A DNA stretch of 64,000 bases from a virus (IMGVR_UViG_2786546892_000017); one strand, 5' to 3'; positions 27,903-35,114 are shown, counted from the stretch's first letter. A program made the numbers and translations. Notes: generated from the letters alone by a model not told the origin.

Positions 27903-27929
27903 AGTCTAGCCGACCGCGTTGCCTGACTC
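27903..27929 (-). promoter_or_regulatory. class-A promoter
   Basis: GAGTCAGGCAAC-N9-TAGACT, overlapping the portal TGA. Confidence 0.8.
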
Positions 27930-30900
27930 ACACCGTGACCACATCGGCCGCCGACAACCCCTTGACGAACCTCAACGCGGCCCGCCTTATCCTTCGCCGC
28001 TTCGCCTTCATCTTCGGACCTGCCGCCGGAGGCACCAGCGTCCCGCCCACCGCGTTCAAGTTCGCAGACATGCCCCCGATAGCCTTTTGCATGTGAGCGG
28101 CCCCGGAGAGCAAGATGGGCGTCTCCTGGCCGTCCGCGTCCGAGAAGTGCAAATGATGGGTCACTGCCTCCTCGTTGATCGTCCCCATCCGGCGGGCGTG
28201 TTCCGCCCCCAACCCCGGTTGGACATAGGCGATGGTCGCGTGCGGGACGTACTTCGCTCGGGTGTTCGTATGGGGGAGCAACTTCCGTAGTTTCCGGTTC
28301 AACCGCCTGATCCCGGCACCGTGAACTTCAGCGTACAGAATGTCGTGCTCCGGGTGGCTAAACACCCGAACTCGCCCGAGCCGGTATTTCACGGGCCTCG
28401 AAGTTCCCCCTACGGCCCATCGCACGTCTTCCGGGTCGTCCGTGTGCAGTCCGTATAGCGTCGTGATGTGCGGGGAATCCTCCCGGCCGTCATCGAACGC
28501 GAGATGGTCGTCAGGGATGGAATCGGCGAGGGCCGTGATGTGGGACGCCAGGTGCCCCGGGAGTTTCACGTGGGTCGATGACAACGGCCGGTCGTCCGCG
28601 TCCATCCCCTTCTTCATGCGGGGCGGCAACGATCCCTTCCCGGCCGGGTTGCTGGGGCGGGGCGGCCAGTTCGCGGCCCCGGCCGGCTTGCCGTGCTTCG
28701 GCACCGGCACCCGCTTCGCCCGCACCGTTACGCCACCCTTGCTCGCCGAAACCGGACCGCCGGCCTTGATCTGTTGAACCACCTGGCCGGCCAAACTCTG
28801 GATCAGATTCGACAACAGAGCATGCGCGTGCGACTCGGAGATCCCGAGTTTCGCAGCCACCCGCCCCGCGTGCTTCGACGCCTCGCTCGCCGCCCAGACC
28901 GCCGGCTTGTGGCTCAAAATCTTGGCGTGCCGCGGGGTCAGCCGCTGGGCGACGGGCAACGCGCGAGACGCGACGGCCGGGGCCACATGCTTCGCCAAGG
29001 GCGCCACGGTCGGCGGGAGCGGGGCTGGCGTAAACTCCTTGGTCGCGTCGGCGTTGGGGGGCGGCGTTCGGCTGGCGGGTTGCGCAGGCGTCGGGCCGCG
29101 GCCAGCAATCAGCGGCGCCGCAGGTGCGGCTGGCGACGGTTTCTTTGTCGGTGTGTGGTGGAACGCGGCGTCGATGGCCTCCGAGTTATCCCTCACTGGT
29201 ACCGAAGATTGTCGCGGGGGCGGCGTCGGGGCCGAAGGCGTCGGCTTGGCAGCGGATTGAGACGCAGGGGCAGGCTGCCCGGCCAACACCCGATGCTTCT
29301 CGGCCGCTTCCACGTGGCCCTTGACCGCCCCTTCGGCCCCGCTCACACCGGACTTCTCTTTAGCCGTCCGCTCGTGAACGGCGGCTGCGTCTTGGTGAAT
29401 CTTTGGATCGGTCTTAGCCCCGGGCGGAATGAACTCGTACCCTTCTTTCCCCGATTTGTCCCACAGGAGAGCCCCAGCCCCCCACTGGTTGCCGTTCTTG
29501 TCTCGCCCATCGCTGTTGATTACGACTTTCTTGTGCCCGTCATCGGTGTGGAGGACTACCGTGTAGCCCTCCTTCGATTTTTGACGGACCAGATCTTCGA
29601 CATGCTTCGTCGCCGCCTTCATATCGACGTAGCCGTTGCTGCCCGTGAATTGCTTCAACAACGAACCTTTGGTGATCGGTGCCTGGTGCGGCGTAGCAGT
29701 CGATGGCGACGGCTTGTCACCTTCCTCTGGCTCCACATGACCGGCCTGTGCCCGTTGCAGCTTCTCCGCAAGGTCGTTGCGATCGGACAATTTTTGAAAG
29801 TGTGCCTCACCGTGGGCGCCCCACTCTTCTTTTGGTTTGCGCACCCACCCCTTCATTGACTCGTCAATGCCCTTATCGGCTACGGCCAGTTTTGACTTCA
29901 GGTCGGCCACGTGCGGCGAGTCTGGCTGAGCCCCGTGGGCCGCGATCGCCGCGTCCAGTTTCTTCCGTTGGCCTGGGTCTGTCACCTTGGCCCGAAGGGC
30001 TGCTGCGGCTTTCGGGTCTTTGGCCGCTGCTGCTACTTCGTCTTTATCGACGAACTCCCCATGATCATCTCGCGGATGCTGGTCTTCGAACCCTTTCTGG
30101 AACGGATCGCCCGGCTTGATCCCCAACGCCTGCAACACCTCATCGGTGATGAGACTGCGGGGGTCGCCAGTATCGGGGAGAGGTTCCTCGCCCTGTGCGT
30201 CCAACTCGGGGACACCGTTGGATCGATCGGGGGCCACAACGGGCGGGGCCGGTGGCGTGGGGGCGGCAGGTTGCCCGGGTGCGGGTTGTGGCTGGGTTGC
30301 GGCCTGGGCCTTGGCTTGGAGTCCGGCCACATACACCGACGGGGGGACCTCCCCTCCTTCCACGGGGTCCAGATCGATCATCCCCCGCAGTTCGTTCGTC
30401 ATGATATAGCCAGACGACGCACCAGCATTCATTCGAGCCTGCTGGATATCGTGGTCGTCAATCTGTGGCGGGTCGATTTTTACGACGAGATGGTCTTTCT
30501 CCCAAAAACGCTTCGCCAGATGCTTGGTCAGTTGCTCGCCAATGTCCTTCACGACCGGCCCGAGCCCGAGCGTGAAGAACTGCTTGAGTTTTGCGTAGAA
30601 CGCCGCGTAGCTGTCCGCGGGCTTCAGCCCCGCCACGGTTGGGTCGGCGAGCCACAGGGCACAGACCATGCCCATCATCCGGTCCCACCCGGACCCGTAG
30701 TCCATGTCACGGGCGCCAGGAGTGAGTAAGTTCGTAATCTTCACATCTTCGTCGCCAGCCAGCCCGATAATCCGATTTCCGCGAGCGCCGCTATACCGCT
30801 GCGAGACCTGAGCCAGTGCCGCCTCAACCGCCTCCTGGTTCGCCCCCGGCACACTGATAATCGTGTCAGCCGACAGTCCGTTGTCCATCGACCGCTTCCA

Positions 30901-31653
30901 ACTATCCGCGATCGCGTCGATCGTGTCGATCATCCTCGCCCCGGCTTGCATCTTGGGCCACGTCGCCCACTGATACAGCGGGTGAATCTCGTGGTCCCAG
31001 ATGGCATCGCGCCGGTCGATCGTCCACGGACCACCCATCCCGAACGGTCCCACGATCCCCGTCACGTAGTTCGTGACGTACCACCCACCGCACGGGTACT
31101 GGGTGCCCATCGGGATCTGATTCGTCGTCGGGGCAGGCACGATCCACAGGTCGGCCGGCGTACCAACCTCGCTCGGTCGCCAGGGCACAATCACTTCGCC
31201 CACGAGCTGCTTTTGGAGCGTCCACGACGAGAGAAATTGGCTGATCGTCTCGACTTCGTTGGGGTCTTGCATCAGCCGGACGAGTTTGTGCTCGTCCGGG
31301 GCCGGCTGGTACTCGTGGTCCTTCGCCCCCGGCGCCCCAAACGCCTTCTTGAACGGCACCCTCGAGGCCGTCCCCATCCCCTTCGGCCGCTGCTTCCGCT
31401 TCTGCTCCACCCGGACCGTGCAGCTCCCGACCGCGTGCATCAACGCACGGATACAGAGGTACTGGACGTCCTTGTATTTGCTGGCCTGGGTGAGCCGATC
31501 AGAGAGTGCCGGCCCCGGGATGTCGCGGCTACGAATCTCCAGGACCGTTGACCGCGCCTGATTCGTGGCGGGTTGAGGAAGTCGTTGCGTCGGGTCGGGC
31601 AGCCCGAGAATGCGGGAGCGGCTGGATTCGGCGGACTGCGTAGTAGGTGCCAT
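27928..31653 (-). CDS. portal protein with a long C-terminal extension ending in a 2H phosphoesterase domain
   Basis: HK97-like portal (LVRLMQDPNEVET..QF, ARDMDY, MTNELRGMIDLDPVEGGE); two HxT motifs, SPHITTLYGL and YVPHATIAY. Confidence 0.88.
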   Translation of the reverse strand: MAPTTQSAESSRSRILGLPDPTQRLPQPATNQARSTVLEIRSRDIPGPALSDRLTQASKYKDVQYLCIRALMHAVGSCTVRVEQKRKQRPKGMGTASRVPFKKAFGAPGAKDHEYQPAPDEHKLVRLMQDPNEVETISQFLSSWTLQKQLVGEVIVPWRPSEVGTPADLWIVPAPTTNQIPMGTQYPCGGWYVTNYVTGIVGPFGMGGPWTIDRRDAIWDHEIHPLYQWATWPKMQAGARMIDTIDAIADSWKRSMDNGLSADTIISVPGANQEAVEAALAQVSQRYSGARGNRIIGLAGDEDVKITNLLTPGARDMDYGSGWDRMMGMVCALWLADPTVAGLKPADSYAAFYAKLKQFFTLGLGPVVKDIGEQLTKHLAKRFWEKDHLVVKIDPPQIDDHDIQQARMNAGASSGYIMTNELRGMIDLDPVEGGEVPPSVYVAGLQAKAQAATQPQPAPGQPAAPTPPAPPVVAPDRSNGVPELDAQGEEPLPDTGDPRSLITDEVLQALGIKPGDPFQKGFEDQHPRDDHGEFVDKDEVAAAAKDPKAAAALRAKVTDPGQRKKLDAAIAAHGAQPDSPHVADLKSKLAVADKGIDESMKGWVRKPKEEWGAHGEAHFQKLSDRNDLAEKLQRAQAGHVEPEEGDKPSPSTATPHQAPITKGSLLKQFTGSNGYVDMKAATKHVEDLVRQKSKEGYTVVLHTDDGHKKVVINSDGRDKNGNQWGAGALLWDKSGKEGYEFIPPGAKTDPKIHQDAAAVHERTAKEKSGVSGAEGAVKGHVEAAEKHRVLAGQPAPASQSAAKPTPSAPTPPPRQSSVPVRDNSEAIDAAFHHTPTKKPSPAAPAAPLIAGRGPTPAQPASRTPPPNADATKEFTPAPLPPTVAPLAKHVAPAVASRALPVAQRLTPRHAKILSHKPAVWAASEASKHAGRVAAKLGISESHAHALLSNLIQSLAGQVVQQIKAGGPVSASKGGVTVRAKRVPVPKHGKPAGAANWPPRPSNPAGKGSLPPRMKKGMDADDRPLSSTHVKLPGHLASHITALADSIPDDHLAFDDGREDSPHITTLYGLHTDDPEDVRWAVGGTSRPVKYRLGRVRVFSHPEHDILYAEVHGAGIRRLNRKLRKLLPHTNTRAKYVPHATIAYVQPGLGAEHARRMGTINEEAVTHHLHFSDADGQETPILLSGAAHMQKAIGGMSANLNAVGGTLVPPAAGPKMKAKRRRIRRAALRFVKGLSAADVVTV

Positions 31654-34066: not shown

Positions 34067-34507
34067 TCAAGCAGTCGATTCGACCACCTGCCGCGCCACA
34101 GACGAAGGCGGCTCCGGCAGACACGCCAGCGTCCAACGGTTCTCTGGAAAGTGGTCGGCCGGGACCGCGCGGGCGCCCACCACTTGGAATACGCTCGTCC
34201 TGTCGGCGAACTGTACACTTCGCAATTCCAGAAAACCGCTCTTTCGGTGATACCACCACAGACCAGATTGCGATGGGTTTTCGAGCCACACCGCCTCTTC
34301 CGGTTCCTCATTCGCCCCGGACTGCTTCCCGCCGCCGATCTGTTCCGCCACCTCGCACGGAAGTCTCGACAGCATCTCATGCCGCAGACACTTGGTCGCC
34401 AAGTGGTACAGTGTCTCCGCCGACATGTCGACGTACTGCCCGCTCGGGAACGAGTGCTTGGCGTAGTGCTCCAGAACCCGGAACGCCAGGTCGATCGCAG
34501 CCGACAT
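34067..34507 (-). CDS. hypothetical protein
   Basis: GAGG RBS; ENPSQSGLWWY motif. Confidence 0.6.
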   Translation of the reverse strand: MSAAIDLAFRVLEHYAKHSFPSGQYVDMSAETLYHLATKCLRHEMLSRLPCEVAEQIGGGKQSGANEEPEEAVWLENPSQSGLWWYHRKSGFLELRSVQFADRTSVFQVVGARAVPADHFPENRWTLACLPEPPSSVARQVVESTA

Positions 34508-34530
34508 GTCGCACCCTCGGATAAAGAAAA

Positions 34531-34769
34531 CGCGCGCGGGATTGCTGTTACGCTAAAGACGACTGTGGCTCACGCGATTATGCCACGCCCGGTCACTGTT
34601 CGTTCCGGCCCCTAGTTCCCCGAGTCCGCCTACTCCGTGGCCCGCGTGCGTTACAGCGGGATTGCGCCGCGGAGGTCTGCGTCATGCCGTTTCGTGTCGG
34701 CGTCACATTCACCCGGTTCAGGCGTCACTTATTATGGATGGCTGCCTTCAGGCCCACCACCCGCGCACG
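34531..34769 (-). ncRNA. putative structured RNA mimicking 23S rRNA H43/H44
   Basis: terminal helix CGUGCGCGGG/CCCGCGCGCG; GGUGGUGGGCCUGAAGGCAGCCAUCC (H43-like); AGCGUAACAGC (H44-like); U-rich tail. Confidence 0.7.
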
Positions 34770-34781
34770 TGTCTCCAACGG

Positions 34782-35114
34782 TTACAGGATGCCGACCACT
34801 TCCCCCGCCCGCATCACCAGATAATCCTCCCCGTCCAGTTCTATCTCGCTCGCCGAGTGTTCACTGAACAGCACCCGGTCCCCCACGGCGACATCCATCG
34901 CACACCGGACCCCGCTGTCCGTAATCCGACCCGGGCCGGCGGCGGCCACCACGCCCCGTTTGGGCTTGCCCTTGGCGCGGTCCGGAATGAGGATACCGCC
35001 TGGGGTCTTGGTCGCCGGTTCATCAGGGGTGATGAGGATGATGTCGCCGGTCGGCCGGAAAGTCACAGCGCATTTCTTGGCACAGGTGGTCTTGGTCACA
35101 GTCGTCAGCCTCAA
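34782..35114 (-). CDS. groES: co-chaperonin GroES homologue
   Basis: FRPTGDIILI...KTPGGILIPD.AKGKP.RG.V.AAGPGR...VAVGDRVLF...EIELDGEDYLVMR..EVVGIL. Confidence 0.95.
   Translation of the reverse strand: MRLTTVTKTTCAKKCAVTFRPTGDIILITPDEPATKTPGGILIPDRAKGKPKRGVVAAAGPGRITDSGVRCAMDVAVGDRVLFSEHSASEIELDGEDYLVMRAGEVVGIL

Follow-up and report, generated by a model that had tools for sequence, protein, structure and literature searches.

The GTPase-associated centre (GAC) of 23S rRNA consists of the tip of helix H42 together with H43 and H44 (Escherichia coli nucleotides 1051-1108), and a 58-nt fragment covering it binds the ribosomal protein uL11 and thiostrepton. The domain also makes contact with the translational GTPases. 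Copies of rRNA sites are known from the r-protein leaders of L10, L1 and L20, which are host-encoded cis-acting 5' untranslated regions and usually partial copies. In the tRNA cluster of phage T4, the stable non-tRNA RNAs rnaC and rnaD are matured together with the tRNAs, and their function is unknown. Another RNA, GOLLD, has been found in Mycobacterium tRNA arrays (work cited by PMC12286853), and the latter paper describes GOLLD and ROOL as forming homo-oligomeric complexes (PMC12286853). Here we describe a 239-base element on the minus strand (34531-34769) of a 64,000-nt stretch of viral DNA, IMGVR_UViG_2786546892_000017, which as a whole is called the window below. The element is flanked by the Cpn10 gene of a prophage and an unnamed open reading frame (ORF), in a prophage region of a bacterial genome. 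Comparison with relatives indicates that it is a conserved, structured, stand-alone RNA gene reproducing the GAC, and phages thus appear to mimic this site outside the ribosome.

The structural interpretation of the element is strongly supported by covariation. The element belongs to a large phage family in which compensatory changes preserve a secondary structure like that of the GAC, along with at least one of its tertiary pairs. The alignment A2 holds 23 distinct sequences including the window copy, after removal of three duplicates, and A3 is the same alignment without the window copy (22 sequences). RNAalifold, run unguided on A2, returned an 8-bp closing helix, an H43 of 3+3 bp and an H44 of 2 bp, with compensatory changes on both sides in 10 of the 16 pairs. 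In A3, 86.6% of the cells of the named structure pair, compared to 27-50% in controls with the partners offset by 1-3 columns, and the covariation score of 0.575 (0.157 in shuffles) was reached by none of 500 shuffles. All eight pairs of the closing helix covary in the 22 non-window relatives; its sequence is unrelated between members, while it is always paired. The basal H43 pairs covary as well. In the 93 distinct contexts among the matches listed, the pair 1057-1081 is A-U in 74, C-G in 14, G-C in two, U-A in one and otherwise composed in two, while 1058-1080 is U-A in 41, G-C in 30, A-U in 15, C-G in five and otherwise composed in two. The lone tertiary pair of the rRNA, 1082/1086, occurs in these contexts as U.A (47), C.G (31), A.U (6) or another combination (9), whereas U1060 and G1059 are invariant and 1061 is free. 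Covariation of the helices and of 1082/1086 thus means that the helices of the real GAC are retained in the family together with at least one of its tertiary contacts, across members of 31-62% GC. A preliminary description, made from the window alone, had read the element as a stand-alone mimic of the H42-tip/H43/H44 domain and not as an rRNA fragment, and had tied this claim to the conservation of both loops and the closing helix in homologues. These parts are indeed conserved, with compensatory changes that extend to 1082/1086.

The H44-like block of the family reads GCGUARNAGC with a 2-bp stem. Together with its linker it is invariant in the 23 sequences of A2, for which the search pattern had fixed that block. 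The 79 distinct viral RNAs among the matches listed in a separate scan, to which all counts out of 79 refer, form an independent set, and in these G1093, U1094 and A1098 are invariant and A1095 is present in 76. The linker is UUUG in 63/79 and UUUA in 10/79, and the tail after H44 is ACAC in 63/79 and ACAU in 13/79. A1067 is kept in only 18 of 23 sequences in which the H43 loop was free to vary, and positions 1096/1097 are also variable.

The family was identified by pattern searches in viral and genome sequences. A looser two-block pattern gave five loci in IMG/VR, including two true homologues (L176 with 51% GC and L178 with 34% GC), and a refined pattern built from three sequences gave 19 metagenome and four genome loci, all 23 of which match beyond the pattern. 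The scan of viral contigs that yielded the 79 RNAs used the 5' block only, so that neither the length of the insert nor the 3' block could influence it, and found at least 118 loci; among those listed, 98 combine an H44-like block with a closing helix of 5 bp or more, 13 are weaker matches under this simple test, seven have no H44-like block within the flank and none is true rRNA. By blastn with typical members the family was found in eight isolated phages, with the whole architecture checked in each: the Pseudomonas phages pf16 (P. putida), UNO-G1W1 (P. fluorescens), Astolliot and Milchi, the Xanthomonas phages XacN1 and XaC1, Aeromonas phage 4_4572 and Cronobacter phage GAP32. Phage lineages carrying the RNA, with 31-62% GC, include Xanthomonas and Cronobacter jumbo phages and T4-like Pseudomonas phages. 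A match in Paenibacillus phage Pd_22F was excluded as a true contiguous 23S piece, and two Acinetobacter MD-2021a records were set aside as annotated 23S. The Pd_22F stretch (L209, MZ092003.1, at about 83.9-84.0 of 86.4 kb) is unannotated, lies near the end of the record and may be host DNA or an assembly artefact. Short coding sequences annotated as 'hypothetical protein' run over the RNA on the opposite strand in UNO-G1W1 (L205 1573-1680) and Milchi (L210 1529-1660) and are probably spurious.

Searches that started from the window's own sequence or from its neighbours all failed; the prophage is isolated and the window copy divergent. The window element had no blastn match in 50,697 phage records, and its three weak matches in 101 related genomes were all chance matches in coding-like sequence. 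Its own 14-mer occurred at 117 loci in IMG/VR, with the H44 motif absent from all examined, and a window-specific two-block pattern hit 14 loci in genome contigs, none with extended likeness. Neighbouring genes fared no better: 26 loci with the VWA neighbour gene showed neither Cpn10 synteny nor the RNA motif, the window portal had no relatives in IMG/VR, the window capsid had none in 400 genomes of the phylum, and in nine viral loci with Cpn10 relatives the RNA followed the gene in none.

That the window copy belongs to the family follows from a profile comparison. With a hidden Markov model (HMM) built from the 22 non-window sequences, nhmmer found a single match in the 64-kb window, which is the element itself (34761-34540; E 3e-5, 19.3 bits, profile positions 11-235 of 245). 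Genome-wide, the same HMM reported the element at E 0.0057, and the only other matches were the H43 parts of two 23S genes. The minus-strand sequence of 34531-34769 is exactly as quoted in the preliminary description, and the 10-bp helix formed by its ends is real. The 5' strand of this closing helix, CGUGCGCGGG (34760-34769), is the equivalent of the H42 tip and pairs over 10 bp with 34531-34540. It is followed by the H43-like hairpin UGGUGGGCCUGAAGGCAGCCAUCCA (34735-34759), assigned from the sequence and from the RNAalifold prediction of the family hairpin. Its parts UGGUGGGC-CUGAAGGCA-GCCAUCCA form 3+3 bp with U.U and G.A mismatches and a 9-nt loop ending in GCA; with stem strands UGG-UG-GGC and GCC-AU-CCA around the loop CUGAAGGCA, the hairpin feature of the family is present. 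The junction strand UAAUAAGU (34727-34734) is equivalent to 1082-1090, for which the family consensus is UUAAAGAGU. A 169-nt insert, or expansion domain, closed by GAC/GUC (34558-34726; inner helices from the energy fold only), separates it from the linker UUU and the H44-like hairpin, AGCGUAACAGC (34544-34557; hairpin 34554-34544), with a 2-bp stem and the loop GUAACA. The RNA then ends with AAU and the 3' strand of the closing helix, CCCGCGCGCG (34531-34543; helix strand 34540-34531), and directly 3' of the helix lies a U-tract, UUUUCUUU (34523-34530), as a possible 3' end or terminator.

Judged by sequence, the window copy is the most divergent member seen. Its 10-bp closing helix (CGUGCGCGGG/CCCGCGCGCG) is shifted by one in register, so that the G equivalent to 1056 is paired, and its H43 loop CUGAAGGCA differs from the consensus UUAGAAGCA at four positions (C1065, G1067, A1068, G1070). 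The junction UAAUAAGU lacks one base relative to the other 22 A2 sequences, and MAFFT places a gap there; it keeps A1088-G1089-U1090, while the bases for 1082 and 1086 are ambiguous in this single sequence. The insert boundary, GAC...GUC followed by UUU-A, matches the family arrangement, and the H44 block AGCGUAACAGC fits the family, with the tail AAUC versus ACAC in the family. The copy is thus a prophage-borne, high-GC, strongly diverged member outside tRNA arrays.

The likeness of the element to rRNA is beyond chance. A strict H43 motif together with a strict or loose H44 motif within 400 nt occurs genome-wide only at the two 23S genes and at the element, with 0.0008-0.018 occurrences of the motif pair expected by chance in the 12.4-Mb genome, the motifs having been defined after the element had been seen. 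The host 23S genes lie on other contigs (C5 and C15) and their GAC reads differently, which rules out the element as a copy of the host rRNA. It is neither a 23S rRNA gene nor a fragment of one (RF02541), since there is no large-subunit (LSU) match and no contiguous rRNA beyond H42-H44. In agreement with the earlier statement that no other rRNA lies nearby, Rfam 15 had no match in the window at gathering score; at E<=10 there was none around the element either, so that the two split partial LSU hits which had been predicted did not appear. Comparison of the insert with the remainder of 23S gave only scattered chance matches of 8-11 nt.

The insert site is fixed in the family, between (G/A)AGU and the UUU(G/A) linker, before G1091. 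Among the matches listed, inserts measure 28-350 nt with a median of 128, and whole RNAs 86-458 nt. The insertion of about 170 nt that was first noticed in the window is 169 nt long and is not peculiar to this copy, being one length variant of this expansion. The insert-closing helix is supported for its first three pairs, which covary in A3 (GC, AU, UA, CG); in 68/79 viral RNAs the closing pairs are all standard, with four pair types. For the longer closure AAG-UGAC/GUC-GU-CUU that had been proposed, this means that GAC/GUC stands by covariation in relatives while the remainder is unsupported, and two further pairs proposed for this helix were dropped as unsupported in A3. The helices described inside the window insert appear in its minimum free energy (MFE) fold and are thus predicted by the model, for an insert that has no alignable relatives from which covariation could be read. 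Indeed, inserts are not alignable across the family and the window insert has similarity to no other member's insert. A pattern for insert-less or short-insert forms, GCAGCCAYCN{5,35}GCGTAAYAGCACAC, found nothing in IMG/VR, which holds for that pattern only.

Subgroups of inserts nevertheless share 3' modules, and the 3' insert motifs of two subgroups include ...GGCACCCCGGAGACGGUAAGGCUGAA... and ...CCCUUAGAGC... One module, ...GGCACCCCGG(A/U)(G/A)ACGGUAAGGCUGAA...CCC-UUU, is common to L203, L205, L206, L207, L210, L195 and L201. The other subgroup (XacN1, XaC1, GAP32, L181, L186, L188 and L197) shares ...CCCUUAGAG(C/A)N-UUU, and a tandem G-A beside the closing pairs in the subgroup of XacN1, XaC1 and GAP32 might be a kink-turn-like motif. 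Locus L181 carries two tandem family copies at about 1475-1700 and about 1712-1960, some 12 nt apart. Each copy is closed by a helix of its own, their inserts differ, and the form is UUUAGCG in the first and UUUGGCG in the second.

Most members lie in phage tRNA arrays. At the pattern-defined loci every tRNA found is on the RNA's own strand, with gaps to the closing helix as small as 0 and 2 nt (L183), 12 and 3 nt (L184) or 0 nt (L189). Among the matches listed, 47/79 viral RNAs have a co-oriented tRNA within 600 nt, 32/79 have one within 30 nt, mostly at 0-7 nt, and the tRNAs of this viral sample number 112 on the same strand and none on the opposite one. In phage pf16 the RNA occupies the whole space from tRNA-Asn to tRNA-Pro, and in UNO-G1W1 that from tRNA-Trp to tRNA-Arg. 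The tight packing suggests that the RNA would be released as a discrete molecule by tRNA-processing enzymes. A further 32/79 viral RNAs have no tRNA within 600 nt and resemble the window copy in this; a tRNA-array location is therefore a typical and not a defining feature of the family. A U-rich tail after the closing helix, as in L198, L200, L182, L194 and L201, is frequent in members without flanking tRNAs. One array on a 220-kb metagenome contig (L186) contains, besides the RNA, a tRNA with anticodon CUA at 605-677, called by ARAGORN and labelled tRNA-Pyl, an amber suppressor.

No protein family recurs next to the RNA: 86 flanking ORFs at 23 loci gave only SSB twice, HNH twice and glutaredoxin twice, the last of these from two near-identical loci. 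No uL11 gene (PF00298) was present in the two viral records searched, one of them complete, and the host has one rplK, on another contig. Directly upstream of the RNA in XacN1 lies ORF260 (L204 829-1479, AP018399.1), which is labelled '2'-5' RNA ligase' and matches RNA_ligase PF09414 (E 6e-26); the match suggests that the neighbour of the GAC mimic encodes an ATP-dependent RNA ligase.

The window itself belongs to a 614-kb contig of a 12.4-Mb bacterial genome and its surroundings are prophage-like, with portal, capsid, P22 antirepressor domain and DNA methylase genes. The assembly has 3.8% contamination, and nine listed genomes of the same genus measure 4.8-5.9 Mb, a striking contrast in size that may reflect either a mixed bin or a real expansion. 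Upstream of the RNA on the same strand lies the Cpn10/GroES gene (34782-35114, minus; Pfam PF00166, E 2.1e-25; PHROG co-chaperonin GroES). The encoded protein is very divergent: a search of 5.8 billion proteins gave a best relative of 47% identity, and no more than four of 20 candidates reached E<=1e-10. Its database form has 94 aa, and the true start is probably downstream of the first TTG. On the other side follows a 146-aa ORF (34067-34507, minus) without a Pfam or PHROG family and without relatives in a close search of viral and genome contigs. GAGGG and then ATG lie 13 nt past UUUUCUUU, the ATG of this ORF being at 34507. A simple scan called no terminator at the U-tract, because the 'loop' there spans 219 nt. 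The portal protein (27928-31653, minus; 1241 aa), encoded 3 kb from the RNA, combines a Phage_portal domain (residues 119-425) with a 2_5_RNA_ligase2 (2H phosphoesterase) domain on its C-terminal side (residues 1034-1150); it is unusual for a virion protein to be fused to a domain of RNA-repair type.

Which part of the GAC is conserved may indicate what the RNA binds. PMC1802607 lists 1058-1060, 1062-1065, 1075-1083 and 1088 as the nucleotides of the contact surface for the L11 C-terminal domain (CTD), and A1067 and A1095 as the thiostrepton site. With respect to this list, the L11-CTD contacts of the family are invariant or changed only by covariation, some of them having been fixed by the search patterns. 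The window copy has GGU at 1058-1060, GGCC at 1062-1065, CCAUCCA at 1075-1081 and A1088, with 1082-1083 uncertain owing to the short junction. Conserved L11 contacts combined with a variable A1067 and variable 1096/1097 fit a partner such as uL11, which recognises the fold together with the stem of H43, and fit less well a partner reading the loop tips. We lean, by a narrow margin over doubt, towards a stable trans-acting RNA that adopts the GAC fold and binds host uL11. The two ends of the RNA would fold into a self-closed GAC copy, with the 169-nt expansion projecting from the 5' strand of H44. Off the ribosome this copy may adopt the GAC tertiary fold and bind the ligands of that fold, and the first candidate is the CTD of host uL11, for which the RNA could act as a decoy or sponge; another GAC ligand is a less likely target. 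In most phages, the enzymes that process tRNAs probably excise the RNA from transcripts of the tRNA array. For the copy in this prophage, the probable source is either the 3' portion of the Cpn10 transcript or a transcript with a start of its own, and the RNA may end at the U-tract. As to the outcome we can only speculate: uL11-poor ribosomes might be unable to activate RelA, or the cell might be protected against an agent that targets the GAC. The preliminary description had put forward titration of uL11, a blunted stringent response or the decoying of defence enzymes as possible functions. The wider proposal that phages of many lineages encode a 'ribosome-part decoy', a GAC copy processed like a tRNA that captures uL11 or another GAC reader and rewires translation control, is tentative, and we hold it to be rather less probable than its opposite.

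Several points weigh against this reading as a whole. The window copy and all other members are known from DNA sequence alone; no public RNA-seq run listed covers the locus, which speaks neither for nor against expression. Since uL11 is mostly ribosomal, a sponge would need a high copy number or exchange of uL11. Search patterns fixed parts of the core, which makes the 'invariance' there partly circular. The window RNA is of ordinary stability, with an MFE of -98.7 kcal/mol (z = -0.66) and 52 of 200 shuffles folding as well; the GAC-like fold, at -88.9 kcal/mol, is 5 above an MFE of -93.9, in an energy model that ignores tertiary and ion contacts. The 64-kb window contains no tRNA, so this copy lies outside any array. 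It departs from the family at 1065, 1067, 1068 and 1070, has a shorter junction and a shifted helix register, and could be decaying or retargeted. That all its helices are intact despite the divergence speaks for selection and against decay; its specificity may have changed.

The same structural evidence, covariation of the GAC fold, applies if the RNA is a decoy or substrate mimic for a GAC reader other than uL11. Candidate readers are RelA, translational GTPases, rRNA methyltransferases and host enzymes of defence or toxin type by which H43/H44 would be cut or modified, and the RNA would sequester or divert such a reader in the infected cell. Phage tRNA arrays are regarded as a place for countermeasures to attacks on translation, and the family is found in such arrays; in XacN1 the RNA directly follows an RNA-ligase gene, and the window portal carries 2_5_RNA_ligase2, both of RNA-repair type. 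However, the RNA-ligase neighbour was seen at one of 23 loci examined, A1067, which faces factors and antibiotics, and 1096/1097 are the least conserved parts of the loops, and no phage-defence enzyme with the GAC as its target is known to us. A reader other than uL11 therefore appears unlikely, though it deserves to be kept in view. The tight linkage to tRNA genes and the tandem copies with different inserts at L181 could also suggest that the RNA acts on tRNAs, with the GAC module docking their elbows and aiding maturation or protection, or that it replaces a damaged GAC in trans. On the ribosome, H43 and uL11 do dock tRNA elbows. Against such a role, tRNAs are absent within 600 nt of the window copy and of 32/79 viral RNAs among the matches listed, and the hypervariable insert of 28-350 nt argues against a conserved ribosome-docking domain, which makes it quite improbable.

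Two readings without a trans-acting RNA have also to be considered. At the window, UUUUCUUU straight after the closing helix, with GAGGG and an ATG 13 nt on, would suit a cis element of the Cpn10 operon that acts in the manner of the r-protein leaders copying rRNA sites, be it as a leader to the 146-aa ORF or as a terminator or attenuator dependent on a protein, and U-rich tails recur in some other members without flanking tRNAs. But the family has no conserved downstream gene, the downstream ORF here has neither relatives nor a family, 47/79 RNAs among the matches listed lie among co-oriented tRNAs with 32 abutting one, the terminator scan was negative and host rplK is on another contig. We consider a cis element improbable, by a hair less so than a role on tRNAs or in ribosome repair. 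The other reading is a dead relic, that is, a captured piece of bacterial 23S which was interrupted by an insertion and has no function. The two blocks are 60-90% identical to rRNA and phage records can hold true rRNA fragments, as Pd_22F does, whereas the flanks of the element are not rRNA (no Rfam match), the closing helix always pairs despite its unrelated sequence, compensatory change spans 31-62% GC, and about 100 members with differing inserts share one insertion site. The covariation already contradicts a relic, and we give it hardly any credence.

If phage GAC copies do capture host uL11 or another GAC reader during infection, ribosomes could for example become blind to RelA, a phage-made relC state, or the decoy could neutralise some unknown defence that recognises the GAC or attacks it. 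The role of the hypervariable expansion would then be to tune stability, localisation or a second partner. Binding of uL11 or of other GAC readers would be a new viral route into host translation or the stringent response. For structural biology, the family provides natural GAC variants that all carry their expansion at the same position, and its presence in isolated phages with tractable hosts makes the question directly testable.

As far as we can tell and as far as the searches reach, the RNA is new in kind. Rfam 15 contained no matching family for the window and 20 relative loci, only tRNAs, in line with the preliminary description, which had recognised no named family; at E<=1, three typical members gave tRNAs and two unrelated sub-threshold matches over a tRNA. 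No description of such an RNA was found in openly licensed papers and bioRxiv, a search that could miss an account in a subscription journal. RNA mimicry of rRNA sites is already known from the cis-acting r-protein operon leaders, while, within the reach of these searches, no entire functional rRNA domain is known to exist as a free-standing, phage-encoded copy that covaries faithfully. Like the leaders, the family is RNA off the ribosome that copies the rRNA site of a ribosomal protein; unlike them, it has no adjoining r-protein gene, lives in tRNA arrays, copies the whole domain and has no Rfam leader match. It shares phage or prophage tRNA arrays as a habitat with GOLLD and ROOL, which are larger, gave no Rfam match here and to our knowledge have no rRNA-like domain. 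T4 rnaC and rnaD, likened here by description only, are also non-tRNA RNAs inside a phage tRNA cluster, and we know of no GAC likeness in them. With the 23S GAC itself the family has in common the order and shape of the helices, an H43 loop ending in GCA with the family consensus UUAGAAGCA equal to rRNA, an H44 loop GUAAYA, the junction UUUAAAGAGU as in many rRNAs (cf. the true 23S in L209), invariant U1060 and G1059, a free 1061, a covarying 1082/1086 and the kept L11-CTD contacts. It differs from the rRNA domain in having ACAC instead of UCAC after H44 and an A1067 that is not fixed (18/23), in the expansion of 28-350 nt (169 nt in the window) between GAGU and the UUU(G/A) linker, and in being a separate, small, phage-carried gene with its own closing helix of 6-30 bp and not part of a 2.9-kb rRNA.

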